Part shown: positions 1,901-31,703 of the stretch, one piece after another
How positions within the stretch are numbered: the stretch's first letter is position 1
Layout of the letters: each line of letters starts with the position of its first letter
Assembly: GCA_017626395.1 (NCBI GenBank)
Contig: JAGAIU010000075.1
Location: forward strand, 42,349-106,348
Origin: Clostridia bacterium
Lineage (GTDB): Bacteria > Bacillota > Clostridia > TANB77 > CAG-465
DNA: 64,000 nucleotides
Reading direction: 5' to 3'
The notes under the pieces: generated by a model
Seen by the model: only the letters and a program-made list of their open reading frames with translations
Told to the model about the DNA's origin: nothing
The model's database searches: none
Position numbers and translations under genes: made by a program

Positions 1901-2427
1901 ACTTTTCCTCCTTTTTTGCAAAAAATTATTTAATATATATTATATCATATCTTTTGGCTTAATAATATCTTATTTATTATTTAAATTATAAATATTTATT
2001 TTATATTCTAGCGCTCATTACATCCTTAATATTAATATTAATTTTATTTCTTTTTTAATTTTCCGTATATTTATTATCTTCTATATTCGGATGCAAATAC
2101 TATGTGGTACTTGCATTCCTACGTTGTATGTGCTGAACTTTCTGTGTATGAATTTTTCATACGTAAAAATCTCCCTTCGTATAATTATTTGGTTGCCGCC
2201 AATTACATTATACCATAAGGGAGATTTTCTTTTTTGTTACTTTATTCATAGCTAAAAGCTTTTTGGAACCACATGCATAGCATGTGCTCTTCTCTGAAGC
2301 CAAAAAGAAGGATTCAAAACTGAATCCTTCTTCTACTAATTATTTTGGGAAATTTTTCCTCTACTTTTGACTTAGAACCCAAAAATATCGTCTAACTTTG
2401 CCCAATATTTTAAGTGTACTTCATAAT

Positions 2428-3882
2428 TTAATTTACTTTTATTTTTAGCATTTTTTGAAACATATTTTTACTCATTCTCCAGAATTCATCTTTTTTTATT
2501 GCTAAAAAAGCTAATGTACATATCAAGAAAAACAATCCGCCAACCAATATTTGAACAACTATTGTTACTATACTATCTCCTATTAGTGTGCCTAACCAAT
2601 TAACTATAAACATCATACAAAATCCTATTATAAGAACAGGCATATATTCAAAAATATATTTAAGTACAGGGATTTCTTTTCTTACAGCAAAAACTTGCAT
2701 TATCATTACGCTAAATTCTGCAAATATTGTTCCTATTGCAGCACCAACAGCAGCGTATTTAGGTATCAACAATAAATTGATTATTAAATTTACAATTCCT
2801 CCAACCACAGTAGATATAACATAAATTTTATCATAATTATTTGGCATTAAATATTGTGTTCTGATAACATTAGCCCATGATATAAAAAATACAGTTATTG
2901 ATAATAAATATATAATTTTAGCAGATGGTTCAAATCCTTCTCCAAAAAAAACTGGTGTAAAAACATTACTAATTCCCATTAATCCAAAAGCAATAGCAGA
3001 TGATATTATAGTTACTAATTTAACAGATAAAGAAATATACTGCTTGCTTTTATCATTTTTACCATTAGCAACCATATTTGACATCCTTGGAAGCATAACA
3101 GTTCCTAAAGCTGTTATTATTCCCATCGGTATATTAATTATCTTTTCCGCATTATTATAATATCCTACTTCTGAATAATTAGATATATTTCCTAACATTA
3201 TTTTATCCATTACTTTATATATACTATAAGCTATAACAGGAATAAAAAGTATGATTATAGGCTTTATATTTTCTGTTATATTTCTAAAACTTACTTTTTT
3301 AAAAGTAACAAATTTCTTAACATAAAACCAAAGATATAATTGACTAATAAAAGTTCCTAATGACATAATCAAAGTATAAATCCATAAGTCACTTATATCT
3401 TTTACAAATATAAACATACTAATTACAGTTAAAATTTTAATTACAACATTTCTAAATACTGTCAATTTAAATTGTTCTAATCCGAAAAATAACCAACTAA
3501 TATCTAATAAACCTGAAGCAACATAAAAAGTTTGCAATAAAAATATCATGTTGTTTTCAGAAGCTATAAATAAAGAATATACAACATAACTTATTATTGC
3601 TATTATGAACAATATAAATTGCAATGAATATATACTGCTAAACTTTTCATTTAATTTTTCTTTATCATCACGTACAGATGCAATAGTTCTATTTCCATAA
3701 TTACTAATTCCGAGCATAGCAATTAATATAAAATAGTATGCAACAGAGTTGGTATAAGAATAAACTCCAACTGCATTGGCACCAAGTGTTCTAGAAATAT
3801 ATGGAGCGGTAATTAGTGGTAATATAACTAGTAATATTTGATATATTGTATTATATATAAAATTTTTCTTAACAGATTCCAT
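2428..3882 (-). CDS. wzx: Wzx-type oligosaccharide flippase (polysaccharide biosynthesis protein, MOP superfamily)
   Basis: 484 aa, multi-helix membrane protein. The N-terminus (IYNTIYQILLVILPLITAPYISRTLGANAVGVYSYTNSV) is typical of the PST/Wzx family. Confidence 0.85.
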   Translation of the reverse strand: MESVKKNFIYNTIYQILLVILPLITAPYISRTLGANAVGVYSYTNSVAYYFILIAMLGISNYGNRTIASVRDDKEKLNEKFSSIYSLQFILFIIAIISYVVYSLFIASENNMIFLLQTFYVASGLLDISWLFFGLEQFKLTVFRNVVIKILTVISMFIFVKDISDLWIYTLIMSLGTFISQLYLWFYVKKFVTFKKVSFRNITENIKPIIILFIPVIAYSIYKVMDKIMLGNISNYSEVGYYNNAEKIINIPMGIITALGTVMLPRMSNMVANGKNDKSKQYISLSVKLVTIISSAIAFGLMGISNVFTPVFFGEGFEPSAKIIYLLSITVFFISWANVIRTQYLMPNNYDKIYVISTVVGGIVNLIINLLLIPKYAAVGAAIGTIFAEFSVMIMQVFAVRKEIPVLKYIFEYMPVLIIGFCMMFIVNWLGTLIGDSIVTIVVQILVGGLFFLICTLAFLAIKKDEFWRMSKNMFQKMLKIKVN

Positions 3883-3892: not shown

Positions 3893-4768
3893 CTACTCCT
3901 TAACAATGCTTTGCTTAATCTTTTCTATTATTTCTCTGTCTTTATTTATATTAAATTTTCTCGCAAAAAGCATATTAGAGTTGATTAAAAACTCATAATC
4001 TTCTATTTTATACTCATAAGGATTTCCTCTATTCCAATCAATGCAATATAGAATAGAAGAATAATCATCATTGTAATTCTTATTATATAGCTTTTCTTTA
4101 TAAGAAGAATTTAATACTAGTGTTTGTAAAAACATTTCATCAGCTGTAACCGTATGATTGTATTTCTTGTATATCATTTTCTCATTTTCTAAAACATATT
4201 TAGCTAACTTATCAGTAATAGTAAACCAATTAGCTCCTTTTCCTAAAGCCATATCGCTTTTTAATCTATTAATATTAAATTGCAATATTAGCAGAACCTT
4301 ATTAACAATTTTTTGAATAACATTTTTGTTCTTTCCAGTAAATAAATAATATTTATTTATTCGCTCTTTATATTCTCCTTTTAAATCTTTTGAATCAAAA
4401 TGCACATATTCTACTCCATAGCTAGCTTCAAAAAAATTATAAATTTCTTCTTGTGTCTTTAAAGGTAAATCTACTCCTGAAATCAAGTGATAATATGTGT
4501 GATTTGTTTTAGTAGCTTCCTTTAGCAATTCAATTTCACATCTTATTTGCGAAAATCCACCCCAACACACATCAATTCTATTTTTAAGAAAATTTAGCTT
4601 ACCTTTTTTAACGAATCCAAAAAACTCTTCTTCATTGAAATGCTTTACTTTTTTATCAACATGAACATAAATATCATTTTTTTCATAATCTAAACATTGA
4701 AGCAATATCTTAAATTGTTCAAAATTATTATGAATCATAACAAGGTATGCATGTCTATTTGCCATCAT
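3893..4768 (-). CDS. Glycosyltransferase, GT14-like (core-2/I-branching type)
   Basis: 291 aa. The N-terminus (AYLVMIHNNFEQFKILLQCLDYEKNDIYVHVDKK) resembles the bacterial GT14 family, and the gene sits in a capsule locus. Confidence 0.5.
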   Translation of the reverse strand: MMANRHAYLVMIHNNFEQFKILLQCLDYEKNDIYVHVDKKVKHFNEEEFFGFVKKGKLNFLKNRIDVCWGGFSQIRCEIELLKEATKTNHTYYHLISGVDLPLKTQEEIYNFFEASYGVEYVHFDSKDLKGEYKERINKYYLFTGKNKNVIQKIVNKVLLILQFNINRLKSDMALGKGANWFTITDKLAKYVLENEKMIYKKYNHTVTADEMFLQTLVLNSSYKEKLYNKNYNDDYSSILYCIDWNRGNPYEYKIEDYEFLINSNMLFARKFNINKDREIIEKIKQSIVKE

Positions 4769-5921
4769 TTATCACCTTTGATAATTTATCTAAATAACCA
4801 TACGATTTTTCTTTTAAACCGTCTAATCTGCTATAAACATCTTCATAATCTGGCATTTCATTTAAATCCATTTCTTTTAAATCTTTTATTGTTTTATATC
4901 TTCCCATAAGATTTAATTGTGTCAAAAACGAAATCGCTCTATCATCTTTTGATGGATCATTTTTTCCACTATCTATATACCAGAAATTTTTACGATAAAT
5001 TGTTGCAAAAGCTGTTCCATGAAAAGATGTAGTTATAAACATTTTAGAATTTTTAACAACATTCATATATACATCTGGACCATAACTTTTTATTAATTTT
5101 ATTTTGTTTTTCCAGCATGTTTTTAAAGTCCATTCCTTGGCTTCCATAAAATATACTGGCATATTATATTTCTTTGAAACAAAATTTAAAAACTTTTGAA
5201 CTTCCTCTGTAATATGGAAACAATAATAAAAAATATAATCTCCTTTAATTATTGGTTCTCCTACATTTACAGTATTTTCCCATTCTTCCTCAGATAATAA
5301 CATAGTTGGGTCTAAGCAAATTTGTGGCTCTATACCAGTACCTGCTTTAATCCATTTTTGTGCATTATGTTCTCTAACAGAAAGTAAATTAAAATTTCTA
5401 ATGCATTCTGCATACTTGTCCTTCTTGTTAGTTAAAAAAGGATTATTTGCTCCAAAACTTACTGCATATGATAATTTAGGAGCTTTTGTTTCAAAATCTA
5501 AATAATAAATATCATCCGCATCTTGTGCTTTAACGTTCCAAACTTGGTCACTTCCAGCTACAAAAGCATCATACTTATCTTTTATTTTTTCAAATTCTTC
5601 TCTATTAGAAATAATCTTTCCCGATAACTTAAAGTACTTATTAATAAATTCATTATATGAATTAAATTGTATTTTTAATTGTTTTAAATTTGTAGCTAGA
5701 ATCATATTTTTAATGATTTTTTTATAGTTTGTTGCTTTTGATAAAACAGCATACATATTCTGTTGTGCTTCATTTGAATAATTAACTACTTCTGCATCAA
5801 AATTATATTTGTTTCTTAAAACACTTTGTAAAGCTAATGTTTGTAACATTGATCCATTATTATGTGACGCATGAAACGTCATTATACCTACTTTTTTCAT
5901 ACTTAAAACTTCCTTTCCCAT
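4755..5921 (-). CDS. Polysaccharide pyruvyl transferase family protein
   Basis: 388 aa. The N-terminal motif KVGIMTFHASHNNGSMLQTLALQ matches the PS_pyruv_trans signature (TFHxxHNYGAxLQAYAL). Confidence 0.65.
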   Translation of the reverse strand: MGKEVLSMKKVGIMTFHASHNNGSMLQTLALQSVLRNKYNFDAEVVNYSNEAQQNMYAVLSKATNYKKIIKNMILATNLKQLKIQFNSYNEFINKYFKLSGKIISNREEFEKIKDKYDAFVAGSDQVWNVKAQDADDIYYLDFETKAPKLSYAVSFGANNPFLTNKKDKYAECIRNFNLLSVREHNAQKWIKAGTGIEPQICLDPTMLLSEEEWENTVNVGEPIIKGDYIFYYCFHITEEVQKFLNFVSKKYNMPVYFMEAKEWTLKTCWKNKIKLIKSYGPDVYMNVVKNSKMFITTSFHGTAFATIYRKNFWYIDSGKNDPSKDDRAISFLTQLNLMGRYKTIKDLKEMDLNEMPDYEDVYSRLDGLKEKSYGYLDKLSKVINDGK

Positions 5922-5941: not shown

Positions 5942-7189
5942 CTAATTAATGTTAATTATTGTATAGATATTTTTTTCTTTAAAAATATTTTCTTTATTAT
6001 ATATATAAGCTAGGAAAATAACTAAATAGACATAATTAGTTATAGACCCAGAATTAAATAAATTTGCTTCAAATAAAGCAGTATACATATATACAACTAA
6101 TATTGGAAATATTTTAGTTTTCATAAATACATTTCCAGAAAAGTAAAAATTTTTCAATAATATATATATAGCATATAATATTAATGCAAAACCTATAATT
6201 CCAGTAGAAATTAATATATATATGTATCCATTATCTAACCAATATGTTGTATATGGAGTTAGATGTGTACCATATGCTGTATTAGATACATACCCCAATC
6301 CCTCATATACTCTACCACTACTCCAAAATTCTGGTAAAGCTTTTTCAAATAATAATGATCTTTGAGATTGTATAAGTATTTCATCAAAATCTAAATTAGA
6401 AGCAAAAACTATTAGTGCACCAAAAAAAGTAATTTTTATAAAGGTTATAGCAATCTTTTTTCTGTTGGAAATATTATTATTATAAAATTTCTCAAAAGCT
6501 ATAATTACAATAAAAGCTATCAATCCGGTTAAAGAGCTTCTTGAAGCACTACAAAGTAACATGATTATAGATATACTCATTAAAACAGTAGTAATTAATT
6601 TCTCAAGATTTTCTTTTTTTAGCATAGACCATAATATTACATTACATAGACAAGCACCGCCTAAAGTATTATAATGTCCAAACCCAAAATTAGCTCTTGT
6701 TCTTTCAGACTTACTCATTATATTTGCAATATTACTTAAATTTAAGTCTGAGAAATTTGATAATAATTGTACTACCAAAACAAATGATAAAGCATAAAAA
6801 GATGATTTAATAAATGTATCAACGGCATCAAATTTTATCGTAGCACATGCCGTTAAAATTACTATAACCACAAACATAATTTGAGATTTAAACTGACTAG
6901 TAGTTAAATCTATCATCATAGGATTTACTAAAATTTTTCCCCATACAATAGTATGTAATAACAATACCAGTGCCACTTTAAAAAAGTCTTTATGTTTAAA
7001 TGTATCTAATTTAATCTTCCCCTTAGATTTTATCAATAATAAAACCAATATTAAGACAATATAAATAATCTGCAAAAGTATAGGATCAATTGGAAGAGTA
7101 TAGTTACCTGTTAATACAAGAATTCTACTAACAAATAAAACAAAAAATATTACTCCAAATAGCACATTAACACTAATCTTTTTTTCCAT
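5942..7189 (-). CDS. wzy: Wzy-type repeat-unit polymerase / O-antigen ligase-like membrane protein
   Basis: 415 aa with roughly 10-12 hydrophobic helices and a large loop. It sits between glycosyltransferases and the flippase. Confidence 0.6.
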   Translation of the reverse strand: MEKKISVNVLFGVIFFVLFVSRILVLTGNYTLPIDPILLQIIYIVLILVLLLIKSKGKIKLDTFKHKDFFKVALVLLLHTIVWGKILVNPMMIDLTTSQFKSQIMFVVIVILTACATIKFDAVDTFIKSSFYALSFVLVVQLLSNFSDLNLSNIANIMSKSERTRANFGFGHYNTLGGACLCNVILWSMLKKENLEKLITTVLMSISIIMLLCSASRSSLTGLIAFIVIIAFEKFYNNNISNRKKIAITFIKITFFGALIVFASNLDFDEILIQSQRSLLFEKALPEFWSSGRVYEGLGYVSNTAYGTHLTPYTTYWLDNGYIYILISTGIIGFALILYAIYILLKNFYFSGNVFMKTKIFPILVVYMYTALFEANLFNSGSITNYVYLVIFLAYIYNKENIFKEKNIYTIININ

Positions 7190-7220: not shown

Positions 7221-8252
7221 TTATATTTTACTTTCAACAATAATACGTTCTTTCTCTATTTTTAATATTTTTCTTTTAGTATAACTCCAACAATGCTTTA
7301 TAAATTCATCTACATCATCATATAATTCTTTTATGAAACTATAGGAATTGTACTTATTTATATTATTTTTTACATTTTCATCAACACATGTAAAAACTTT
7401 ATTTTTAGAAATAATCATTTTATTTGAAAATTCACCTTCCAAATCCCATTTTCTTTTTTGTATATGAATATATATGTACTCTCTTGATTTTACGACTTCA
7501 TTTTCTATATAATATTGGAAAATTTTTTTATCTTCCCACATAAATATTTGATTTTTAAAATTTACAGGATTATATTCTTTTCTAAATTCTTCATATATGC
7601 TTGGATAATATTTTAAATCAGTACACATTGTATATCTACGTTTTGATGGCCAGATATCTGCATAAATTATTTTATCAAAAAAACTATTTTTATTTTTATT
7701 AAAAATTTTAATAAGTGCTAATTCATCAAATAAATAATTTCTCTCATCAGTAAATATTTTCTTGTAATCTGAATATCCAACAACTTTTTCCATAAATTTA
7801 ATATTATTTTCTTTAGTATTTTTATACAAGCTCAAATGTCCCATTGGTAAAAATTTATCATATTTTTCTAAATTGTATTTTTCGAAAAAAGATCTTAAAT
7901 CTCCCCATATTAAATCAAAATCACAATGTCCCCAATAATCATAACCAATAAATAAATCGCTAAAAACAAATCCATAAGCTGGTTTATAATCACAAAGTTT
8001 AAATGGCGAATCAATTTTAGCTTTAAATCCAATTTTCTCACTCACTCTAGCTCTAACTTGCTTTAAAGTCATATTAATTATTTTAACATTTTCGGGAACA
8101 TTCTTAATACTTTGATCTGTTATAACTATAAAATCAACAGATGGATTATTTTCACATGATTTTAACCATACTGAAAAGTAATTTGGTAATTTTCCCATAT
8201 ATATTCCCATAATACATACTTTACTATTTTTTTTCATAAACTTTTTCTCCAC
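7221..8252 (-). CDS. Putative capsule-synthesis glycosyltransferase (nucleotide-diphospho-sugar transferase-like)
   Basis: 343 aa with no transmembrane segment. The N-terminus (KVCIMGIYMGKLPNYFSVWLKSC) resembles capsule-synthesis proteins. Placement inside the capsule operon is the main support. Confidence 0.4.
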   Translation of the reverse strand: MEKKFMKKNSKVCIMGIYMGKLPNYFSVWLKSCENNPSVDFIVITDQSIKNVPENVKIINMTLKQVRARVSEKIGFKAKIDSPFKLCDYKPAYGFVFSDLFIGYDYWGHCDFDLIWGDLRSFFEKYNLEKYDKFLPMGHLSLYKNTKENNIKFMEKVVGYSDYKKIFTDERNYLFDELALIKIFNKNKNSFFDKIIYADIWPSKRRYTMCTDLKYYPSIYEEFRKEYNPVNFKNQIFMWEDKKIFQYYIENEVVKSREYIYIHIQKRKWDLEGEFSNKMIISKNKVFTCVDENVKNNINKYNSYSFIKELYDDVDEFIKHCWSYTKRKILKIEKERIIVESKI

Positions 8253-8281: not shown

Positions 8282-9250
8282 TTAACTATTGAATAATATT
8301 GAACATAATTTATACATTTTGTTTTTCAACAATATTTTTCTACTAAAATCTTTTAAATTCCTTACTTTTACATTTAATATATTTTTAATCATTTCGTTTT
8401 CACCAAAGATATTTTTTATTTGTTTTTTATTATATCCACTTTTATATAATTTTCCTGCATAATTAGCAATATTTCTTAAAAAAGCTATATTTATTTTTTC
8501 TTTATAAAAATCGCTTCTTTCACATTTTTTGATTTTATTACTAATATCTTCATAAATAGTATTAAACTCTTCAAGATGCTTTAAAGATGTTTTTCTATGA
8601 CACAATCCATTTTCATTTATAGTATGAAAACATATAGCTTCACTACTTAAAAAGATTTTATCACAACAATTAATGTACTCTAAATTAAAAATCAAATCTT
8701 CTCCCATATTTAATCCTGGTTTAAATCTTATATTGTTTTTTTCTATAATTTCTTTTAAATATATTTTATCCCATGGTGCATTAATCTTATTTTCACAAAT
8801 CCATTCCATTACTCTTGATTTTTCTATATATTTATCAAATTCATCAATTAACCATGTTTTTTCCTTATATATTTTATGATTTTCATCAATATAATTATCT
8901 AATATGCAAAAATCTTTATTTTCAGCAATTGAAATGATTGTTTCAACATATTTTTCACTAACATAATCATCACTATCTAAAAAGCAAATATATTTTCCTT
9001 TAGCATATTCAATTCCTTTATTTCTTGCTATGCTAACCCCACTATTTTTTTGAGAAAAGTATTTTATATTATCATATTTCTGTTGTAATTCAAAACATAT
9101 CTTTGCTGAATTATCTAATGAACCATCATCTATAAGTATAATTTCAAATTCTTTTGATTTTTTTCTCTGATTAATAATAGATAAAATATTTGTATAAAGA
9201 TATGACTCTGCATTATATACAGGCACAATAATACTTAATAATATTGGCAT
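8282..9250 (-). CDS. Family 2 glycosyltransferase
   Basis: N-terminus LSIIVPVYNAESYL...EIILIDDGSLDNS is the classic GT2 pattern, including the DxD region. Confidence 0.85.
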   Translation of the reverse strand: MPILLSIIVPVYNAESYLYTNILSIINQRKKSKEFEIILIDDGSLDNSAKICFELQQKYDNIKYFSQKNSGVSIARNKGIEYAKGKYICFLDSDDYVSEKYVETIISIAENKDFCILDNYIDENHKIYKEKTWLIDEFDKYIEKSRVMEWICENKINAPWDKIYLKEIIEKNNIRFKPGLNMGEDLIFNLEYINCCDKIFLSSEAICFHTINENGLCHRKTSLKHLEEFNTIYEDISNKIKKCERSDFYKEKINIAFLRNIANYAGKLYKSGYNKKQIKNIFGENEMIKNILNVKVRNLKDFSRKILLKNKMYKLCSILFNS

Positions 9251-9264: not shown

Positions 9265-10290
9265 TTAATTTGCTTTTCTTTTTTTATTTACGAATTTAGC
9301 TAATACTAAACTAGTAAAAATAAAATTACATTTCAATAAAATTATAAAAGCTTGTGCACTTTTAGGTAATCCTTTAAGTTTAATTCCTTTAAGAGTATTA
9401 TTGTCTCTTATATTTTTTCTTATGTGCTTAGTTGATTTTAATATTGGTTGATTAGATTTTATTTCATGAAATACTGCCATGATTAACCAATACGCTTTAA
9501 AAGCATTTATTTGGGCATCTATTATATTATTTTTTCCTCCAATTTTAGAATCAATATACTCTGTTAATAATCTATTATTTTCAAATCTAGTTGGATCATA
9601 ATTATTAGTCATAGATCCCATATTTAATTGATTGTAATAATATAGGACATCTTCACAAAAATAAACATTATTAGAATAGTATAGGCATTCAAACACAAAT
9701 GCATTATCTTCTCCCATTCTTATTCTTTCTTCTGTACAATAATGTTTAGTTAATAGCTCTCTCTTAAAGATTTTATTCCAAGCAACAGGAAATATTAACC
9801 CAGTACAAAATGGTTTTCTACAGTCATACATCATGTATGGATATACATCTTTTTCTAATTTTTCTTTATTATAAAAACCTTCTATAGCACCTTTAGGAAT
9901 TTCAACTTGTTTATCTTCAAACTGACGTACAGCACTAAAAACAACCATATCAGGCTCGTATTTACTTATAGCTTTATCCATTGTTATTTGTAACAACTCT
10001 TTTGAAATCCAATCGTCACCATCTACATAACAAATGTATTCTCCCGTTGCTGCTAAAACACCTGTATTTCTTGCCGCTACCAAGCCACCATTTTTTTTAT
10101 GAATTACACGTACTCTAGAGTCTTTTTTGGCATACTCATCACAAATTTGCGGACAATTATCTGGAGAACCATCATCTACTAATATTAATTCATAATTTTT
10201 GTATGATTGTTCCAAAATACTATCAACACATTTTCTTAAATATTTTTCAACTTTATATATTGGAACAATTATCGAGAATTTTTTACTCAT
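9265..10290 (-). CDS. Family 2 glycosyltransferase
   Basis: N-terminus FSIIVPIYKVEKYL...ELILVDDGSPDN is a GT2 signature. Confidence 0.85.
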   Translation of the reverse strand: MSKKFSIIVPIYKVEKYLRKCVDSILEQSYKNYELILVDDGSPDNCPQICDEYAKKDSRVRVIHKKNGGLVAARNTGVLAATGEYICYVDGDDWISKELLQITMDKAISKYEPDMVVFSAVRQFEDKQVEIPKGAIEGFYNKEKLEKDVYPYMMYDCRKPFCTGLIFPVAWNKIFKRELLTKHYCTEERIRMGEDNAFVFECLYYSNNVYFCEDVLYYYNQLNMGSMTNNYDPTRFENNRLLTEYIDSKIGGKNNIIDAQINAFKAYWLIMAVFHEIKSNQPILKSTKHIRKNIRDNNTLKGIKLKGLPKSAQAFIILLKCNFIFTSLVLAKFVNKKRKAN

Positions 10291-10306: not shown

Positions 10307-11476
10307 CTAACTCATCATCTGTTTTTCAATATCAGCATCTACTATTTCTTCGCCTGATTTATCTTTAAGTTGTTCTTTTGAAGCTTTTGATAAACCATCA
10401 TTTACAACACAATTCATATCACATGTTGAACATTTGTCTAAATCTTCTTTTGAAACTTTTCCATCTCTGTAGTCACGAACTATCTTATTTTCATACATAC
10501 TATATTTTTTCTTAGTCCAAAATTTTAACTTATGACAAAGCACCCACAATACTGGTACCCATATGTATTTATGCATTGCTGGAGAAACCGAACCAATCAT
10601 CCAACAATCTCTGTCACAACAGCGAACTTTTGAGCGAACTTCTTCTGCTTGTTCTGAATTCCATAACTGGTCCCAAGTTTGAGTATTTAAATTTCCCATT
10701 ACTTCTTTATCCTTTGTTCCATTACATGGCATTACATCACCATATGGATCAATAAAGAAAGTATCAAACGACATATCACAAGGTAATAATCTTTTTTGAC
10801 CGTAAATATAATTGATTAATCCATGATTAAAATATGCTCTAAACCATTTTTTTGGTGATTTTGAATTTAGTAGTTTATTTACTAGATTTTCAAAATTTTG
10901 AGCAACCATTAATCTATCATGAATAACATTTTTGGCTTCAACAAAATAAAAGCTATTATGTAAAGACGCTGTAGCAAATTCCATTCCCATTTCATCGGAT
11001 AATTCATACAATGGTACTAAATCTGGTGCATTCTTATCTTGAACAGTCATACCAAACCCAACATCTTTCATACCCATTTCTCTTAATTTTTTTAGAGTAG
11101 TATAACCTCTATTATAACCATCTTTTAATCCACGAATTTCATTATTAGTTTTTTCTAATCCTTCAATAGAAATTCTGATACCTATATTAGGAAATTCCTC
11201 ACATAATTTTATAATTCTATCAGTAAAAAAACCATTTGTTGAAATAACTATACGATCTGATTTTTTATAAAGTTCTCTAACAATTTCAGAAAGATCCTCT
11301 CTTATGAATGGTTCTCCACCTGTGATGTTAGTAAAGTACATTTCTGGTAATTTTTTTATAGTTTCAATACTTATTTCTTCCTCTGGTTTAGATGGACATT
11401 TATATCTATTACACATTGTACATCTTGCATTACATCTATAAGTAACAATAACAGTTCCATTTAATTTTTTTGACAT
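10307..11476 (-). CDS. Radical SAM enzyme with a C-terminal SPASM-like cysteine-rich domain
   Basis: CNARCTMC (CxxxCxxC) lies near the N-terminus. A GGEP motif is present. C-terminal cysteine clusters (PCDMSF...PCNG, CCDRDC, CSTCDMNC) are present. Confidence 0.8.
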   Translation of the reverse strand: MSKKLNGTVIVTYRCNARCTMCNRYKCPSKPEEEISIETIKKLPEMYFTNITGGEPFIREDLSEIVRELYKKSDRIVISTNGFFTDRIIKLCEEFPNIGIRISIEGLEKTNNEIRGLKDGYNRGYTTLKKLREMGMKDVGFGMTVQDKNAPDLVPLYELSDEMGMEFATASLHNSFYFVEAKNVIHDRLMVAQNFENLVNKLLNSKSPKKWFRAYFNHGLINYIYGQKRLLPCDMSFDTFFIDPYGDVMPCNGTKDKEVMGNLNTQTWDQLWNSEQAEEVRSKVRCCDRDCWMIGSVSPAMHKYIWVPVLWVLCHKLKFWTKKKYSMYENKIVRDYRDGKVSKEDLDKCSTCDMNCVVNDGLSKASKEQLKDKSGEEIVDADIEKQMMS

Positions 11477-12618
11477 TTTTCTCTCTCCTTCTTATATATT
11501 TCAATTGTTTTATTAACAACATCATCCCAGTTATATTTTTCTAAAATATATTCTTGAGAATCTTTTTTATATTTATTGACAATATTTTCATCATTTAGTA
11601 AATATTGTAATTTATCTTTTAAATCATTTACATCAGATTTTTTAAATGTAATTCCTTTATCTTCCATTACAGTTTTACATTCTTCTATATCTGATGTTAA
11701 ACAACAATTTTTATAACTCATTGCTTCTAATAGGGATAAAGGCATTCCTTCAAGATCACTAGGTAATACATATATGTACGCATTACTATATAATTCTTCT
11801 AATTCCTCACCTTGAATAAATCCAGTAAATATTATATTTTTATATTTCTTACTTTTTTCTAGTAATTCTTGATAATAAGTACTAGTGTCGCTTGCTCCAC
11901 CAGCAATTACTAATTTCTTTTCTGTTTTAAGTTCTTTATAAGCATCTATTAAATAGTGAATTCCTTTTTCTGGAACAATTCTACCCAAAAACAAAATATA
12001 ATCATCTTTATTTAAGTTGTATTTTTCTTTAATTATTTTAGGCTCTTTTATTTCTGGTTTATTAACACCATTAGGAATAAATTTAGTTTCTCTGTTGTAT
12101 GTTTCTAAAAAATATTTTTTAACATTTTCACTTAGCACTATTATTTCATCTGCATATTTAGCTGCCATTTTTTCACCAAACTTAATGTATTTTGTAGCAA
12201 AACCACCCCATTTAGCTCTTTGCCAATCTAAGCCATGTATAGTTACTATTATTCTTTTTTTACTAAAGAATTTTATAATTGGTATCATAGCACTTGGTCC
12301 TTCTGCATGAAAATGAACTACATTATTTTTAGAAAATAGTATTTTTATACTTCCAAAAAAAGAAGATGTCATAGCTGCTAAACCTTTTTTATCTATTGTT
12401 AATACTTTTTTTAGTTTAACACCTTTATATTCTTTAAGTTCTTCTAATTTTTGTGTCTTATCTAATGCATGCTTTCCTGAACGATTATAACAAGTTATAT
12501 CTAAATCTTTTTTTACCATTCTTGTAGAAAGTTCTTCAACAACAATCTCAATACCGCCTTCTCTAGAAGGAATACGTTTTTGACCAATCATTGCAACTTT
12601 CATTTTATTATCTTCCAC
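11461..12618 (-). CDS. Family 4 (group 1) glycosyltransferase
   Basis: 385 aa. N-terminus KVAMIGQKRIPSREGGIEIVVEELSTRM and a C-terminal EGMPLSLLEAM motif are typical of GT4. Confidence 0.85.
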   Translation of the reverse strand: MEDNKMKVAMIGQKRIPSREGGIEIVVEELSTRMVKKDLDITCYNRSGKHALDKTQKLEELKEYKGVKLKKVLTIDKKGLAAMTSSFFGSIKILFSKNNVVHFHAEGPSAMIPIIKFFSKKRIIVTIHGLDWQRAKWGGFATKYIKFGEKMAAKYADEIIVLSENVKKYFLETYNRETKFIPNGVNKPEIKEPKIIKEKYNLNKDDYILFLGRIVPEKGIHYLIDAYKELKTEKKLVIAGGASDTSTYYQELLEKSKKYKNIIFTGFIQGEELEELYSNAYIYVLPSDLEGMPLSLLEAMSYKNCCLTSDIEECKTVMEDKGITFKKSDVNDLKDKLQYLLNDENIVNKYKKDSQEYILEKYNWDDVVNKTIEIYKKEREKCQKN

Positions 12619-13382
12619 TATTTCGCTCCATCCTTATTTAATACTACACCTACTGTTTTAGTAAGTAATCCCATATCATAGAAAAAGCTTTTGTTTTCAT
12701 TGTATTCCATATCAAACTCTAATCTCTCTTCAAATGTTGTATTAGATCTACCAGATACTTGCCATAAACCGGTTATACCAGGTTTAGATTCAATTATTGT
12801 ATCATAGTAGTTTCCCATATCATCCATTTCTCTAGGTAAATATGGTCTAGGTCCTACTAGAGACATATCTCCTTTAAGTACATTTATTAATTGAGGTAAT
12901 TCATCTATACTAGTTCTTCTTAAGAATTCTCCAAGCTTTGTTATTCTAGGATCATTTTTAAGTTTTTTATTTATTCTATATTCTTCTCTAGCTTCTTCAT
13001 CTCTTTCAAGTAATTCGAAAAGTTTTTTATCTGCATCAGGTACCATTGTTCTAAATTTATATATATCAAATAATTTACCATCTTTACCTATTCTTTGTTG
13101 TGTAAACATAGCAGGTCCATCAGAGTCTTTTCTTATAGCTAAACTAGTAACTAAGAATATAGGAGATAAAACTAATAATGCTGCAGCTGATGCAGTAACA
13201 TCTACTGTTCTTTTTAAGAAAGAATAAGTCATTTCATTAAATGTTTTTCTTTCTGGATTCTTTAGTACTTTTGTATTTTCATTAAATTTAATAATTTCTG
13301 TTTTTTCTTCTGTTTCTGGAACTCTTGCACTTGTTTTAAAACTTAGTAATTTGTAATCTTTTGCTTCACTAGAATGTGACAT
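12618..13382 (-). CDS. Initiating sugar transferase (undecaprenyl-phosphate hexose-1-phosphate transferase, WbaP/CpsE family)
   Basis: C-terminal motifs FDIYKFRTM and DELPQLINVLKGDMSLVGPRP identify the bacterial sugar transferase family. It is the first gene of the operon, with RBS GGGGGAG. Confidence 0.85.
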   Translation of the reverse strand: MSHSSEAKDYKLLSFKTSARVPETEEKTEIIKFNENTKVLKNPERKTFNEMTYSFLKRTVDVTASAAALLVLSPIFLVTSLAIRKDSDGPAMFTQQRIGKDGKLFDIYKFRTMVPDADKKLFELLERDEEAREEYRINKKLKNDPRITKLGEFLRRTSIDELPQLINVLKGDMSLVGPRPYLPREMDDMGNYYDTIIESKPGITGLWQVSGRSNTTFEERLEFDMEYNENKSFFYDMGLLTKTVGVVLNKDGAK

Positions 13383-13530
13383 TTTTTACTCCCCCATTTT
13401 CTGATTTTCATTTTTCTTTCGTTATTAAAAATATATGTTTTAAGAATTAAATAATAAACTATGTTTTACTACATTTTACTATTCAAAAGAGCATAAAAAA
13501 CACAGATAGATCAAACCACCTTTTTTGTAC

Positions 13531-13558
13531 AAAAAAATGTGAGACTTCCTCTCTCACA
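13531..13558 (-). terminator. Intrinsic terminator inside the capsule-operon leader
   Basis: The minus strand reads TGTGAGAgaggaagTCTCACA followed by TTTTTTT. It overlaps the 16-bp palindrome TTTTTTGTACAAAAAA (13521-13536). Confidence 0.5.
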
Positions 13559-13829
13559 AAACATTGTACATTTTAATACTTATATTTACCTTGTGTTTTT
13601 CTTATCTGTTTCCTCTTGTTTATAACTTATCACATGTTGTAGTATCGATTGCATTCCTCTAGTGTTAAGTGCTTGTCCCCGTCTTGACTAGAAAATATAA
13701 ATACGATTGTTTCATAGCAAAGTTTGTGTTTGCTTATTTGTTTATTACAATATTTTGAACAGTATTTGTTACTCCGATTAACATATTTATTATTTATGTA
13801 TTCTCAATTATATACTTTCGACGGATTTC

Positions 13830-13858
13830 ATTATACCACTATTGTAAGAAATAGTCAA
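13830..13858 (-). promoter_or_regulatory. Sigma-A promoter of the capsule operon (TTGACT-17-TATAAT with extended -10 TGg)
   Basis: The minus strand reads TTGACTatttcttacaatagtggTATAAT. The predicted transcription start is about 440 nt upstream of the first gene. Confidence 0.55.
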
Positions 13859-13964
13859 TTATTTTGAACATATTTTGTTGTTTTTTGAGTATTTTTTATG
13901 TAATTTGTATAGTGAATTTTGGTAATTGAAAAGAGAAGTAGATTATTTTCTACTTCTCTTTAGG

Positions 13965-14654
13965 TTAATACGTATAATATAGCGAATCATTTTCCTGTTT
14001 TCTATATAGTTTTACTAGTTTATTTTGCAACTTCTCTAATGATTTAGCATAACGTGTTAGTTTTCTTGAATCCGATGTTGATAACTCTTTTTTAGACTTG
14101 TATCTTATTTCATGTTCCATTTCAGACCAGAAGTCCATTGCTACAGTTCTAATTTGTATTTCAACTTTAATTATTACTGTTTCACTATTGATAGTAACTG
14201 GTGTTTCTGCAATCATATGATACGCTGAATATCCACTCTTTTTAGGATGTTTAATATAATCCTTTTCTTCTATTACTTTTAGACTCGGTATCATACCAAT
14301 TATTTCTTTAATATTTAACACATCTTCTCTAATTGGACAGATTATTCTAATACCAGCAATGTCATCCACATTATCCACAAGATTTTTATATGTAATATCA
14401 TAACCTTTTTTAATCATTTTATTTATTATACTTGTTTTAGACTTTACCCTACTTGTAACTCTCTCTATTATTGGATAACCTGAAACCTCATTTATTCTAT
14501 CTTTTAATATTTTTATACTATTTACTACTTGATTCATTGCTATTTCATATATCTTTAGCAGATCATTATACTGCTTACTCTCTATATCTATTTCTTCATC
14601 TTCTGTTCTATTTATTTGATTATTTTGAACAACTAAACCTAGTCTTGGAATCAC
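13965..14654 (-). CDS. relQ: Small alarmone synthetase (RelQ/RelP-type GTP pyrophosphokinase)
   Basis: 229 aa. Motifs RVKSKTSIINKMIKKG, DIAGIRIICPI, YSAYHMI and EIQIRTVAMDFWSEMEH match the YjbM/YwaC synthetase domain. Confidence 0.8.
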   Translation of the reverse strand: MIPRLGLVVQNNQINRTEDEEIDIESKQYNDLLKIYEIAMNQVVNSIKILKDRINEVSGYPIIERVTSRVKSKTSIINKMIKKGYDITYKNLVDNVDDIAGIRIICPIREDVLNIKEIIGMIPSLKVIEEKDYIKHPKKSGYSAYHMIAETPVTINSETVIIKVEIQIRTVAMDFWSEMEHEIRYKSKKELSTSDSRKLTRYAKSLEKLQNKLVKLYRKQENDSLYYTY

Positions 14655-14800
14655 CTCCCTCTCCCATATATTATTGTATCATATAACTAAATATACTTAT
14701 ACGTTTTTATTGTGAATTTTTTTGGAAAATATTTCACAATTTCGCGATTTACTAAAGTTTGAATATATGATATAATTTTTTGTATCATTGGAGGGGTTAT

Positions 14801-15454
14801 ATGCAATATTTATTCTTAGATGAATCTGGTAATTTACACAAGAATAGTCCAGATAGATATTTCGTAATTGGTGGAGTATTTACTAACAATTATGCAGATA
14901 TAAAGAAATCATATGTTGAAATTAATCGTGAGCTTAAAGATAAGCTTAATATGGATTTTGAAACAGAACTAAAAGCTGCATATCTTAATATGGAAGAAAA
15001 AATGGATATAGTAGTTAAATTACAAGAAATGGATGGTATGTATATAGTTGGTATTATAGTAGATAAGTTTAAAATTGGTATTGAAATTGACCAAATACAT
15101 TTATACTATAACTATATAATTGGAAAATTATTAGATTATCTTGTAAAGATTAAATTAATTAATACTTCAGCAGGACAAAAGCTATTTATAAATATAGACA
15201 AAAGTTCTATGAAAATTGAAGATATTAACTCTTTAGAAATGTATTTAAAAATTCATTTTAATATTGAAAATAAAATGAAATTCTTGTTAGATGTTTCATA
15301 CTGGGATTCAAGTAAAAACTATATGATCCAAGTAGCAGATATAATGTGCAACACAATTTGGAATGTATGTCAATCTCCAAATCCAATGAGAGTATTTAAT
15401 TCACTAAATAAAAAGCATAGATTAAGAATTCATAAATTCGGTAAAAAAGTATAG
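14801..15454 (+). CDS. DUF3800-like protein
   Basis: Start at MQYLFLDESGN, the typical DUF3800 N-terminus, preceded by RBS GGAGGGG. Track ORF 14780 uses an earlier Met. Confidence 0.55.
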   Translation: MQYLFLDESGNLHKNSPDRYFVIGGVFTNNYADIKKSYVEINRELKDKLNMDFETELKAAYLNMEEKMDIVVKLQEMDGMYIVGIIVDKFKIGIEIDQIHLYYNYIIGKLLDYLVKIKLINTSAGQKLFINIDKSSMKIEDINSLEMYLKIHFNIENKMKFLLDVSYWDSSKNYMIQVADIMCNTIWNVCQSPNPMRVFNSLNKKHRLRIHKFGKKV

Positions 15455-29132: not shown

Positions 29133-30011
29133 CTACATTTTTATATTTAACATAGATAATAAACTCTCTAAACCTTCTTCATCATTATATTCAATTATTA
29201 ATCTTTGATGTTTTTTAGTTTGATCTAGTTTTACTTTATAACCAAAGTAATCTTTTAGTTTATTTTCTAGATTTTGGTAATATACTGTTTTAGGTTGTTT
29301 TTTAGCTGGTTTTCTATTATATTTTTCATCACCATATATTAATTTTTCAACATCTCTAACAGTTAATTTTTTCTCTACTACTTTTTTAGCTATTTCAATT
29401 TGCTTTTCCTTATCATCTAAAACTAATAATGCTCTTGCTTGTCCTTCAACAAGTTCTCCTTTAAGTAGCATATCTAATATTTCTTCTGGTAATTTTAAAA
29501 GACGAATAATGTTAGAAATTGTAGATACATTTTTACCAGTTATTTTAGCCACTTCTGAATTAGTATATCCATCAATATCCATTAATTCTTTAATAGCTCT
29601 TGCAATTTCGACGATATTTAAATCTTCTCTTTGGATATTTTCAATTAAAGCTACTTGTTTTTTCTTAGTGTCAGTATAATCTTTAATTATTGCTGGTATT
29701 TTAGTAAGACCTGCAGCTTTAGCTGCTCTCCATCTTCTTTCACCCGCAACAATTGTATATCCATTCTTATCTTTAACAACTAAAATTGGTTGTATTACTC
29801 CATTTTGTTTAATTGAATCTGTTAACTCTTCCATTTTCTCTTTATCGAAAACTTTTCTTGGCTGATTTAACATTGGTTCAACTTCTGTAATATCTAATTC
29901 TACTACTTTTTCTAAGACTTTAGTTTTCTCTTTTTTTGTTACAGCCTCTAGAGTTGTATCATTTTCTTCTCCAAAGAATGCATCTAATCCTCTACCTAGT
30001 CCCTTAGCCAT
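29133..30011 (-). CDS. parB: Chromosome partitioning protein ParB (Spo0J)
   Basis: The ParB-box motif GERRWRAAKAAGL and a helix-turn-helix are present. The gene is adjacent to parA. Confidence 0.9.
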   Translation of the reverse strand: MAKGLGRGLDAFFGEENDTTLEAVTKKEKTKVLEKVVELDITEVEPMLNQPRKVFDKEKMEELTDSIKQNGVIQPILVVKDKNGYTIVAGERRWRAAKAAGLTKIPAIIKDYTDTKKKQVALIENIQREDLNIVEIARAIKELMDIDGYTNSEVAKITGKNVSTISNIIRLLKLPEEILDMLLKGELVEGQARALLVLDDKEKQIEIAKKVVEKKLTVRDVEKLIYGDEKYNRKPAKKQPKTVYYQNLENKLKDYFGYKVKLDQTKKHQRLIIEYNDEEGLESLLSMLNIKM

Positions 30012-30012
30012 A

Positions 30013-30783: not shown

Positions 30784-30946
30784 AATGTCACCTCATGGTT
30801 ATTATATTACATTTACAAAAAAAATAAAAGAGTAAACTTTAAAATTTACTCTTTTTTGCTAAATTAGTTGCTTAGATAATTTTCTAATTAACTTACTTTC
30901 ATATTTTACCTAAATTATAACTTTTTTCGCTATATAATTTACATAG

Positions 30947-31687: not shown

Positions 31688-31703
31688 GTGAAACTCCTTT
31701 ATA

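Follow-up and report, generated by a model that had tools for sequence, protein, structure and literature searches.

Several radical SAM enzymes that act on sugars or sugar-like compounds have been described. BtrN and SpeY are dehydrogenases working on carbohydrate-like aminocyclitol or inositol substrates; in both, the core is followed by a short beta-hairpin domain holding a four-Cys auxiliary [4Fe-4S] cluster, with two of the cysteines in the hairpin and a Cys pair later in the chain. BlsE, the cytosylglucuronate decarboxylase (7vob), provides a precedent for a radical SAM enzyme working directly on a pyranose ring. NeoN (aminoglycoside) and AviX12 (orthosomycin) are radical SAM sugar epimerases acting on antibiotic intermediates, a precedent for inverting an unactivated sugar stereocentre by abstraction and return of a hydrogen atom, which in NeoN is donated by a catalytic Cys. 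A different kind of enzyme, Gnu, is the Und-PP-GlcNAc 4-epimerase of E. coli O157, in which the sugar is tailored on undecaprenyl-PP before the next glycosyltransfer. In gut Clostridia, Erysipelotrichia and related bacteria, the polysaccharides of the cell surface affect immune recognition, phage susceptibility and colonisation, and their chemistry is largely unknown.

The window analysed here, a 64-kb stretch of DNA from a Clostridia bacterium, carries the gene for a radical SAM/twitch-SPASM enzyme inside a polysaccharide operon, every gene of which lies on the minus strand with gaps of at most 45 nt (Table 1). The plus-strand frame across 10307..11476 is riddled with stops. Ahead of the minus-strand start a Shine-Dalgarno sequence, AAGGAGAG, occupies 11490-11483, with the ATG 8 nt beyond it. 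The proteins expected of a Wzx/Wzy locus were found over cutoff for the initiating transferase, the GT4, the two GT2, the Branch protein and the Polysacc_synt/MurJ flippase, and the assignment of 5942-7189 as Wzy is tentative. A preliminary description of this DNA had presented the locus as a classic cps operon with initiating transferase, GT4, two GT2, GT14-like enzyme, Wzy, pyruvyl transferase and Wzx, lacking wzc/wzd. The gene list stands apart from Wzy, for which the match is only sub-threshold, and so does the lack of wzc/wzd, as no CpsC/CpsD (Wzz or tyrosine kinase) homologue was found within the 64 kb; the only P-loop match, at 30013-30783, was rejected as CpsD and is a chromosomal ParA. 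What did not stand is the word capsule: a polysaccharide locus is present, but it may equally make an EPS or a polysaccharide linked to the wall, and a capsule is not established. The initiating transferase scores 284-314 bits with the WbaP/EPS_sugtrans families, just under their cutoffs. The DUF6625 gene (7221-8252) was missing from the preliminary description; its cluster recurs in 15 loci, the window and its source contigs counted in. The total of promoter-like sites equals the shuffled expectation, and the best of them, at 13830..13858, is a consensus match only. An Rfam scan of the whole window gave two tRNAs above threshold, and on the 5' leader of the operon only chance-level matches.

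Table 1. Features of the radical SAM gene and of the surrounding polysaccharide operon; coordinates are those of the window.
Feature	Coordinates	Strand	Basis
Radical SAM/twitch-SPASM enzyme gene	10307..11476	-	ATG-started ORF, 389 aa plus stop
CX3CX2C radical SAM cluster motif (C15, C19, C22)	11411..11434	-	Read off sequence
TGGEPF (GGE) SAM-binding motif, residues 52-57 (T52 to F57)	11306..11323	-	Sequence
Truncated SPASM/twitch domain, residues 233-291; auxiliary C233, C251, C287, C291	10604..10780	-	Pfam, alignment
Hydrophobic helix then basic cluster, residues ~300-320, IWVPVLWVLCHKLKFWTKKK	10517..10579	-	AF2 helix 306-320
Clade-specific C-terminal extension, residues 325-389; C349-x2-C352, GEEIVDADI tail	10310..10504	-	Conservation
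Initiating transferase, small polyprenyl-phosphate hexose-1-phosphate (Bac_transf)	12618..13382	-	Pfam 1e-66
DUF1972-type GT4	11461..12618	-	Pfam DUF1972 + Glyco_transf_4 + Glycos_transf_1
GT2 glycosyltransferase, 16 nt 3' of radical SAM gene	9265..10290	-	Glycos_transf_2 3.3e-39
GT2 glycosyltransferase	8282..9250	-	Glycos_transf_2 1.2e-33
DUF6625 protein, uncharacterised	7221..8252	-	Pfam DUF6625 9.3e-84
Putative Wzy polymerase, 415 aa	5942..7189	-	Sub-threshold Wzy_C match E 0.0099 + size
Polysaccharide pyruvyl transferase	4755..5921	-	PS_pyruv_trans 3.1e-27
Branch (GT14-like) glycosyltransferase	3893..4768	-	Pfam Branch 5.1e-27
Wzx/MOP-family flippase	2428..3882	-	Polysacc_synt 1.3e-31, MurJ 9e-14
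Best promoter-like site upstream of operon, TTGACT-17-TATAAT, extended -10 TG	13830..13858	-	11/12 consensus matches

The CxxxCxxC radical SAM core of the preliminary description is present as C15, C19 and C22, and Pfam gives an above-threshold match to Radical_SAM (PF04055) over residues 9-147 (E 1.2e-15, 58.5 bits against a cutoff of 29.5). The CX3CX2C motif is 99-100% conserved among 76 species and does not vary in a 56-sequence alignment (A1), in which G53, G54, E55, P56 and F57 are likewise found without exception. Together with the four auxiliary cysteines, these two motifs are invariant across homologues even at ~37% identity. The alignment also contains the invariant Arg and Lys residues R14, K42, R59, R75, R101 and R115, and among the homologues no conserved non-cluster Cys is an obvious H-atom donor for an epimerisation: 92% of the clade have C92, but the 51% identical homologue P0141 has Ala at this position. 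In the AF2 model (pLDDT 91.8, pTM 0.90) strands and helices alternate over residues 5-171. The top PDB fold matches to this model are all radical SAM enzymes, the best being twitch/SPASM enzymes that include the sugar-acting BlsE, DesII, SpeY and AbmM; GDGT-MAS is also among the PDB matches.

The profile search for SPASM that had been suggested in the preliminary description returned a Pfam match over residues 233-291 (E 1.6e-10, 41.5 bits against a cutoff of 21.5; PF13186 / TIGR04085 type). The SPASM-like auxiliary domain is therefore there, but truncated and twitch-like, and the canonical motif is incomplete. The full seven-Cys SPASM motif, which goes with two auxiliary clusters, runs CX9-15GX4C - gap - CX2CX5CX3C - gap - C. 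The window protein keeps the first half (C233-x12-G246-x4-C251), its second block is shrunk to (C286)C287-x3-C291, and an alignment to CteB shows no CX2CX5CX3C block, the two cysteines that should follow being absent. The region pairs with the opening half of CteB's SPASM domain and with the twitch region of BtrN, which aligns with the family profile at 227-291 (E 6.6e-9). An abbreviated SPASM of the twitch type has three or four cysteines, a pair in the hairpin and a later pair, and four invariant cysteines occupy the expected positions. Because C233, C251, C287 and C291 are the only auxiliary cysteines that are invariant in the alignment, the pattern fits, at the level of sequence, a twitch-like domain with a single cluster (BtrN/MoaA subclass).

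Beyond this domain lie two further conserved elements. In the hydrophobic helix W311 is invariant and K316 nearly so, and the segment is kept even in distant homologues and in the fusions described below. This helix could serve as a membrane-interface anchor or as a lid of the barrel. In an amphipathic-helix test residues 300-320 had a mean hydrophobicity of 0.45-0.58 and a low hydrophobic moment; because the moment is low, a role as membrane anchor is speculative, and the helix may instead be a buried lid. The C-terminal extension (pLDDT 59-95 in the model) is absent from short forms of the protein at 63-70% and at ~40% identity, and the second Cys pair is confined to it. Among 76 species C352 is conserved in 100%, C349 in 91%, C286 in 80% and C356 in 50%; the extra C-terminal cysteines could form a third site.

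The radical SAM gene had been thought unusual in such a locus. On the contrary, the enzyme is widespread: species-representative genomes yielded at least 592 matching stretches, and one 90%-identity cluster contains more than 10,000 sequences. Its setting is a polysaccharide locus in all 66 related loci with full gene order, where it lies near the 5' end, and in all nine further contexts. The usual order is PGT, DUF1972-GT4, an optional second GT4 or acyltransferase_3, radical SAM, variable GTs, Wzy and Wzx. Synonymous sites are saturated (pS 0.87, pN 0.11) and the GC3 of the homologues ranges from 13% to 90%, following host GC; since the median amino-acid identity is 86% despite this, the enzyme is under extreme purifying selection. 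Recent horizontal transfer as the origin of the 84-91% identities is ruled out by the host-tracking GC3, by the pS value and by the neighbouring GT4, which is more diverged (61% identity). In our judgement, conservation at this level is expected only of core informational proteins. A full-text search of openly readable papers retrieved none on this radical SAM family, and within the same literature no biochemical or genetic evidence on any member, nor did any curated family give it a function; a radical SAM protein from a C. difficile essential-gene study is unrelated, being of the PDZ/DUF512 type.

The most constant neighbour of the enzyme is the DUF1972 GT4. Its gene lies upstream of the radical SAM gene in 52 of the 54 loci that have at least 6 kb of upstream sequence, and in the reverse check all three close GT4 homologues had a radical SAM gene 0-2.2 kb downstream. 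Gene overlap points to translational coupling: in the window the 3' end of the GT4 gene runs 16 nt into the radical SAM gene, and in paralogues of ~40% identity the overlap is 4-8 nt. In the close clade the two are joined in a GT4::radical SAM fusion (P0394), present on 3 contigs, and P0206 and P0261 are further fusions, GT2::radical SAM and GT4::radical SAM. P0171 combines a pseudo-radical-SAM domain with a DUF1972 GT4 that is 35% identical to the window GT4 over its full length, and directly upstream of it lie the genes of a FAD/NAD reductase and of a true radical SAM enzyme that shares 51% identity with the window protein. Three other candidate fusions were rejected: P0001 (482 aa) and P0002 (444 aa) are assembly artefacts of internal duplication, and P0144, in which a radical SAM fragment is joined to Polysacc_synt_2, probably reflects a chimera or a truncated gene call. 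The auxiliary cysteines are lost in P0206 and P0261, and CX3CX2C is lost in P0171; because these distant, GT-fused homologues have lost them, some of the wider family may have another mode of action or no catalytic activity. In our reading the radical SAM enzyme is coupled to the DUF1972 GT4 functionally, and probably physically too. The best NCBIfam match of this GT4 is the Cps2T beta-1,4-rhamnosyltransferase family NF046071, over the full length, with 124.6 bits against a cutoff of 500; it resembles Cps2T/WchF-type rhamnosyltransferases, although below the cutoff neither membership nor donor sugar is established. In eight related loci rmlC, sometimes with rmlD, adjoins these GT4s, and the 64-kb window contains no rml gene.

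The results described above incline us to the view that the radical SAM enzyme is a dedicated glycan-tailoring enzyme of Wzx/Wzy-dependent assembly, coupled to the GT4 that adds the second sugar. The preliminary description had suggested that the enzyme modifies a sugar of the repeat unit, and the tie to glycan assembly has gained from the 66 loci and nine contexts, from the GT4 coupling, from the fusions, and from the lack of an RRE, a precursor and a sulfatase. We infer that the substrate is a sugar, linked to a lipid and not to a nucleotide, and the outcome of the reaction is inferred in the same way; epimerisation and oxidation are our guesses at the chemistry, and dehydration is likewise a guess. 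In the scheme that we envisage, the enzyme would be catalytically competent and hold a single auxiliary [4Fe-4S] cluster of the twitch type, while its C-terminal extension might provide a second metal site. The DUF1972 GT4 would add a second sugar, most likely a rhamnose-type 6-deoxyhexose, to the polyprenyl-PP-hexose made by the initiating transferase. SAM would then be cleaved reductively to the 5'-deoxyadenosyl radical, which at the cytoplasmic face of the membrane would attack the early mono- or disaccharide carried on undecaprenyl-PP and remove a hydrogen from one of its sugar carbons. Return of a hydrogen atom to the substrate radical from the opposite face would give an epimer, while passing an electron to the auxiliary cluster would give a keto-sugar, and the variable downstream glycosyltransferases would then extend the repeat unit. 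Because an enzyme ~86% identical is found in the polysaccharide loci of hundreds of anaerobic gut and rumen species, an undescribed radical step in the building of surface sugars suggests itself. More tentatively, this may be a novel radical step on undecaprenyl-PP-linked intermediates with an obligate DUF1972 GT partner, possibly one that inverts an unactivated sugar stereocentre. Such an inversion might, for example, turn a D-hexose into an L-hexose by epimerisation at C5; one such L-hexose, L-altrose, is reported in Butyrivibrio EPS.

Much of this evidence also bears on another, in our opinion less likely, explanation, in which the enzyme turns a common NDP-sugar (dTDP-L-rhamnose or a UDP-hexose) into an unusual soluble donor for the DUF1972 GT4 by radical epimerisation, dehydration or decarboxylation. 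The tightly linked GT4 could use the product, and the GT fusions are equally compatible with channelling of a donor; BlsE, which has the closest TM-score, DesII and AbmM all act on soluble nucleoside or nucleotide sugars, and the many invariant Arg and Lys residues would suit a diphosphate ligand of either kind. Gene order argues the other way, however, because in most loci the radical SAM gene follows one to three GT4 genes instead of preceding them together with sugar-precursor genes, and the conserved helix, hydrophobic and basic, may speak for a role close to the membrane.

Tailoring of a lipid-linked sugar has also to be weighed against maturation of a peptide or protein, of the RiPP sactisynthase or anSME kind, by an enzyme whose presence in the locus is accidental or whose target is a pathway protein, such as the GT4 or the enzyme's own conserved C-terminal tail. 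The top PDB sequence/profile scores are indeed those of the RiPP maturases SkfB (E 4e-19) and CteB, then of anSME, a weak match (E 2e-5 with the profile). SPASM domains typically belong to enzymes that modify peptides, the tail (CSTCD...GEEIVDADI) shows unusual conservation, and conservation this extreme is seen more typically where an enzyme has a macromolecule as its partner. We consider this improbable nonetheless. Pfam finds no RRE or other leader-binding domain, the Radical_SAM core starting at residue 9 with no other N-terminal domain, and the alignments of SkfB and CteB to the window protein begin only at their residues ~100-110. There is no precursor peptide gene and no small ORF would fit, as the flanking genes overlap by 16 nt or stand 16 nt off. 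The NCBIfam models of AlbA, PapB, SkfB, MftC, StsB and WgkB give 38-58 bits against cutoffs of 265-850, and that of anSME is likewise far under its cutoff. No sulfatase-family gene is among the 22 recurrent neighbour families of 80 loci whose representatives were read, judged from these sequences by eye and not by HMM. The short forms without the tail (63-70% identity, for example P0331) and the paralogues at ~40% keep the GT4 context. We rejected on these grounds the RiPP maturase class (sactisynthases, ranthipeptide synthases, MftC, PqqE), because the window protein has no RRE, no precursor and no above-cutoff HMM of that class, and anSME, which has no sulfatase partner here and whose two auxiliary clusters contrast with the truncated SPASM of the window protein. 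Pfam returns only Radical_SAM and SPASM and no B12-binding or HemN_C domain; C-methylation, one of the reactions put forward in the preliminary description, is therefore unlikely, and the class B and class C radical SAM methylases were discarded for want of a cobalamin or HemN-like domain. The 44 NCBIfam equivalog matches, compared among others with AhbC/AhbD, NirJ, MoaA, HpnH, Tes and the tungsten-cofactor maturase, are all far under their cutoffs, the best being PTO1314 with 73.4 bits against 306.

Equally improbable is a mainly structural or electron-transfer subunit of a membrane GT complex, or an HpnH-/Tes-like chemistry on the polyprenyl carrier: the pseudo-radical-SAM half of P0171 suggests a scaffolding interaction with its GT4, HpnH (55 bits) and the tetraether lipid synthase Tes (38 bits) match weakly in NCBIfam and GDGT-MAS is among the PDB matches, but the P0171 locus has its own bona fide radical SAM enzyme and reductase, the HpnH and Tes scores reflect generic core similarity far under cutoff, and the catalytic motifs are all invariant in the window clade despite saturated synonymous divergence, which argues for catalysis.

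One uncharacterised enzyme, tied to a specific GT at the start of repeat-unit assembly, is present in at least several hundred species, and its carriers are predicted to share a radical-generated sugar modification beyond standard nucleotide-sugar enzymology. Identifying the step would extend bacterial glycan assembly by a new type of reaction and, with the function, fill an annotation gap of more than 10,000 database sequences; the modification could be a conserved glycan epitope, or the enzyme a target, across many commensals. Should the undecaprenyl-PP-linked version be true, this would be the first radical SAM enzyme shown in a Wzx/Wzy assembly line, and the reducing-end core of the surface polysaccharides in hundreds of gut and rumen anaerobes would carry a common, conserved feature of undescribed chemistry.

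Compared with the known systems, Gnu offers an analogy of pathway position only, since it is not a radical SAM enzyme and its fold and mechanism are unrelated. Our searches detected no specific relationship to NeoN or AviX12, and no invariant Cys equivalent to the catalytic one of NeoN was identified in the window family. The top curated family is TIGR03961 (the PTO1314 family, archaeal and uncharacterised), which gives 73 bits over residues 11-296 and scores P0261 at 87 bits; the window protein, far under the 306-bit cutoff, is not a member. SkfB, CteB, SuiB and anSME share with it the core-plus-SPASM architecture. However, SkfB, CteB and SuiB carry an N-terminal RRE of ~100 residues and have an adjacent precursor gene, neither of which accompanies the window protein, and anSME, which has no RRE, requires a sulfatase substrate, a partner that the window protein lacks. 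CteB and anSME also have the full seven-Cys SPASM with two auxiliary clusters, whereas the window protein has the first half of the motif only. BlsE gives the best superposition (TMq 0.59, TMt 0.69, rmsd 4.8 A), and its similarity to the family profile (E 1.7e-10) is limited to the N-terminal core (residues 10-155); it differs in its 16% identity and in belonging to a nucleoside-antibiotic pathway, and UDP-glucose dehydrogenase and uronate genes are found in a minority of the related loci only. BtrN and SpeY have the arrangement of core, hairpin and four-Cys cluster predicted for the window protein, although SpeY is just 13-14% identical to it in the fold search, and both belong to antibiotic pathways in which they act on soluble small molecules without a glycosyltransferase partner. 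The window protein, in turn, has CX3C where these enzymes have CX2C, and adds an extra hydrophobic helix and a 65-residue C-terminal extension with a Cys pair of its own.

The reading frame of the radical SAM protein opens with an ATG and runs for 389 codons on the minus strand; the plus-strand frame over the same interval is not open and has many stops. A strong Shine-Dalgarno sequence, AAGGAGAG, lies 8 nt 5' of the ATG, and the start codon lies inside the preceding GT4 gene, 16 nt from where that gene ends. The radical SAM core claimed in the preliminary description is borne out by this frame, by a Pfam Radical_SAM match (residues 9-147; 58.5 bits against a cutoff of 29.5) and by the motifs CX3CX2C (C15/C19/C22) and GGE (TGGEPF, residues 52-57). 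All genes of the polysaccharide operon are on the minus strand, with overlaps or gaps of at most 45 nt. Its composition is as previously described for the initiating phosphoglycosyl transferase (PGT), the glycosyltransferases, the pyruvyl transferase and Wzx; the putative Wzy was called from a sub-threshold Wzy_C match, and a DUF6625 gene had gone unmentioned. The DUF6625 cluster is found in 15 loci, counting the window and its source contigs, and its product may be a further glycosyltransferase-like enzyme. The reported lack of chain-length and tyrosine-kinase genes holds for the whole 64 kb: CpsC and CpsD proteins of related loci, used as queries, matched only the chromosomal ParA beside ParB. 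About 6 kb upstream of the operon, beyond unrelated genes, there is a LytR-CpsA-Psr gene. In the operon leader, which has no Rfam family match, the best promoter-like site (11/12 matches plus TG) is about 450 nt 5' of the PGT start, and a terminator-like hairpin with a T-run stands between the two; the leader could be regulated or antiterminated.

Table. Positions of the operon genes and of surrounding features in the window
Feature	Position	Strand	Remark
Bac_transf small initiating transferase	12618-13382	minus	Pfam
DUF1972-type GT4	11461-12618	minus	Pfam; precedes radical SAM gene
Radical SAM gene	10307-11476	minus	exact ORF limits
Shine-Dalgarno of radical SAM gene	11490-11483	minus	
Two GT2 genes		minus	Pfam; downstream of radical SAM gene
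DUF6625 protein	7221-8252	minus	E 9.3e-84; between GT2 and putative Wzy
Putative Wzy, 415 aa		minus	sub-threshold Wzy_C
Pyruvyl transferase		minus	Pfam
Branch/GT14-like transferase		minus	Pfam
Wzx flippase		minus	Pfam
Operon leader	13383-13964	minus	
Promoter-like site	13858-13830	minus	
Terminator-like hairpin	13558-13538	minus	
Large AT-rich ORF	1-1730	minus	exceeds window start
Palindrome	2270-2286		
RelA_SpoT-type synthetase	13965-14654		
DUF3800 gene	14780-15454		
LytR-CpsA-Psr gene	19546-20505		
VanZ-like gene	20566-21069		
148-aa ORF	22879-23325	minus	
126-aa ORF	23378-23758	minus	
SocA/Panacea gene	23978-24427		
Stealth-family gene 1	26550-27536	minus	
Stealth-family gene 2	27548-28555	minus	
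Origin region	29133-45140		
dnaA	39402-40811		

The wider window is chromosomal and comes from a low-GC gut MAG. It includes the chromosomal origin region (parB, parA, mnmG, mnmE, then dnaA, dnaN, recF and gyrB), and the operon is therefore origin-proximal (about 25 kb). An identical radical SAM protein is encoded on ENA scaffold ERZ28654753; in gene order the window is closest to an 'uncultured Bacilli' MAG. Just 5' of the operon are genes for a small RelA_SpoT-type alarmone synthetase, a DUF3800 protein and a VanZ-like protein; the same neighbourhood lies 5' of the PGT on an independent metagenome contig (L090, 1-4001), and this synteny may be conserved in the lineage. Further out, two adjacent paralogous small ORFs with no Pfam match share an internal Y[IM]FAFSN and a C-terminal IAKC[FL]A-stop motif and adjoin a SocA/Panacea antitoxin-domain gene. 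Two tandem Stealth-family genes carry the CR1 and CR2 regions and, in one of them, CR4, which are typical of capsule hexose-1-phosphate transferases; the pair suggests that a further phospho-glycan system, one that does not depend on Wzy, is encoded about 13 kb from the operon. Downstream of the operon, beyond an intergenic region of about 550 nt with a palindrome, comes a long AT-rich ORF that has no Pfam annotation; in the source contig (L001) it encodes 781 aa.

ORFs were taken from 80 retrieved related loci and clustered, and the full gene order could be read in 66. In all 66 the radical SAM gene belongs to a polysaccharide locus and stands close to the 5' end of that locus. It is a fixed member of Wzx/Wzy-type loci. 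The usual order is PGT, DUF1972-type GT4, often a second GT4 of about 400 aa and/or an acyltransferase_3 gene (a frequent flanker), the radical SAM gene, and then GT2, GT4, pyruvyl transferase, Wzy and Wzx genes in varying combinations. Of the 54 loci that extend 6 kb or more upstream, 52 have the DUF1972 GT4 orthologue and 44 the second GT4. Since the window operon has no second GT4, the minimal conserved module is the PGT, the DUF1972-type GT4 and the radical SAM enzyme. A small reverse check found the radical SAM gene 0-2.2 kb 3' of the GT4 in 3/3 close GT4 homologues, which had been selected for the length of their contigs. Paralogues of 40-47% identity in Kineothrix and Butyrivibrio fibrisolvens keep the same triad, with GT4 and radical SAM genes overlapping by 4-8 nt, and a 70% identical short form in a Solirubrobacterales MAG is flanked by two genes of GT4 type, of which the one downstream matches DUF1972 weakly. 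The B. fibrisolvens locus of the roughly 42% identical paralogue P0299 (CP065800.1; L087) also encodes a second Radical_SAM protein (13214-14338, 374 aa), directly 3' of a pyruvyl transferase and with no SPASM match recorded.

Fusions that occur in nature speak for a direct functional link with glycosyltransfer. P0394 (837 aa; 3 contigs, close clade) is a GT4::radical SAM/SPASM fusion, P0261 joins GT4 and P0206 GT2 to radical SAM; the last two keep CX3CX2C and have lost the auxiliary cysteines, and the auxiliary cluster is thus not universal in the wider family. In P0171 (717 aa, two independent samples) a radical-SAM-like domain that has lost CX3CX2C is joined to a DUF1972 GT4, 35% identical to the window GT4 over its full length. 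In its locus, on JGI and Logan metagenome contigs (L088, 6238-10154; L089), a genuine radical SAM enzyme that shares 51% identity with the window protein is followed by a FAD_binding_6/NAD_binding_1 reductase and then P0171, an arrangement in which the reductase may be a dedicated electron donor and P0171 a scaffold of the pseudo-enzyme kind. These fusions and their details suggest that the radical SAM fold interacts physically with the glycosyltransferase. By co-occurrence, overlap and fusion, the enzyme is coupled to the GT4 that acts after the initiating transferase.

The SPASM-like domain proposed in the preliminary description was recovered by a Pfam profile search, above cutoff (residues 233-291; 41.5 against 21.5 bits), but it is a truncated, twitch-like SPASM rather than a full one. 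The first half-motif is kept (C233-x12-G246-x4-C251), the CX2CX5CX3C block has shrunk to (C)C-x3-C, the following two SPASM cysteines are missing in an alignment with CteB, and the same region matches the twitch domain of BtrN (E 6.6e-9). C15, C19, C22, C233, C251, C287 and C291 are invariant both across 76 species and in an alignment of 56 sequences reaching down to about 37% identity, and the four auxiliary ones are so placed as to predict one fully ligated twitch-type cluster. By its motifs the protein is a radical SAM enzyme whose catalytic apparatus is intact, with an auxiliary site of the twitch type. Its clade carries a 65-residue C-terminal extension, absent from relatives at 63-70% and about 40% identity, with a conserved C349-x2-C352 pair and the conserved tail GEEIVDADI; this extension may hold a further metal. 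A confident AlphaFold2 model (pLDDT 91.8, pTM 0.90) has only radical SAM twitch/SPASM enzymes as PDB fold neighbours, all below 20% identity: SkfB (best by E-value), the sugar decarboxylase BlsE (best by TM-score, 0.59/0.69), then CteB, SuiB, anSME, MoaA, DesII, SpeY and AbmM.

The enzyme had been considered unusual; it is instead widespread, with at least 592 matching stretches, 83-91% identical, in a scan of one genome per species. Hosts among the matches listed include Lachnospiraceae, Oscillospiraceae, Erysipelotrichales, Acetivibrio, one Veillonella MAG and one Collinsella MAG. A homologue search gave about 8,000 clusters at 90% identity, a single one of which has 10,053 member sequences; the best 120 are all 84-88% identical and near-full length except P0001 and P0002, longer homologues that were discarded as internally duplicated artefacts. 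The cluster of P0093 also contains 'acyltransferase family protein' entries of about 338 aa from Eubacterium coprostanoligenes, probably an artefact of clustering in which a gene that is fused or wrongly called made the bridge. When clustered at 50% identity, and fragments aside, a library shows a gap: the next homologue below the clade at 78% identity or above stands at 51%, and proteins at 33-44% come after it; short forms at 63-70% also occur. Among the homologues amino-acid identity has a median of 86% and a minimum of 78%, and 52% of positions are invariant across the 76 species; the neighbouring GT4 is 61% identical at equal pS. The proportion of synonymous differences is 0.87 (saturated) and of non-synonymous ones 0.11, while GC (27%-60%) and GC3 (13%-90%) follow the host loci. 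Saturated pS and host-tracking GC3 rule out recent transfer, and the extreme conservation reflects purifying selection, for which several obligatory protein or membrane contacts are one possible source.

As to function, the sugar modification suggested earlier is well backed in its glycan link by the comparative data. The enzyme would abstract H from a sugar of an early repeat-unit intermediate. An undecaprenyl-PP-linked mono- or disaccharide is the favoured substrate, because the gene is usually 3' of the early glycosyltransferases and a hydrophobic and basic helix (about 300-320) is kept even in distant relatives. Nearly as plausible is that the enzyme produces an unusual nucleotide-sugar donor for the GT4. 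RiPP maturase, anSME and class B/C methylase identities were rejected on their defining features: the window protein lacks an RRE and a B12 domain, its gene has no precursor peptide gene beside it, and no sulfatase partner recurs among its neighbours in the loci examined.

The second sugar, which the GT4 would add, may be a rhamnose-type 6-deoxyhexose, since the top NCBIfam match of the partner GT4 is a Cps2T/WchF-type beta-1,4-rhamnosyltransferase (full-length alignment, 124.6 bits, under the 500-bit cutoff) and rmlC, sometimes with rmlD, flanks partner-type GT4s in 8 related loci; the 64-kb window has no rml genes. No additional tailoring enzyme (reductase, aminotransferase) recurs with the gene in the loci examined, which speaks for a reaction that is complete in itself, with epimerisation as one candidate outcome. 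The auxiliary clusters of BtrN, SpeY and anSME accept an electron, and on that analogy a second candidate is oxidation to a keto-sugar; BlsE-like decarboxylation or dehydration are further possibilities. C-methylation, also proposed earlier, is unlikely because the protein has no cobalamin or HemN-type domain. The exopolysaccharide of B. fibrisolvens, which carries the gene (P0106), reportedly contains L-altrose. L-altrose is the C5 epimer of D-galactose, and the inversion would plausibly need radical chemistry, making it a speculative lead for the product.

The weight of the finding lies in its breadth (hundreds of species), the extraordinary conservation and a directly testable prediction, namely that abundant anaerobes of the gut and rumen share a glycan chemistry new to science. 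Homologues are named in databases only 'radical SAM protein' or 'MoaA/NifB/PqqE/SkfB family radical SAM enzyme', and by NCBIfam cutoffs the protein belongs to no curated family; no model came near its cutoff, the top one being the uncharacterised archaeal PTO1314 family (73 bits against 306). Searches of openly available full texts found no description of this family, nor of any radical SAM enzyme at work in Wzx/Wzy-dependent polysaccharide synthesis. We rate the protein as a twitch radical SAM enzyme that probably acts on carbohydrate, in a pathway where such enzymes are new and with a putatively obligate glycosyltransferase partner, to be likened to the carbohydrate-acting twitch/SPASM enzymes BtrN, SpeY, BlsE and DesII.
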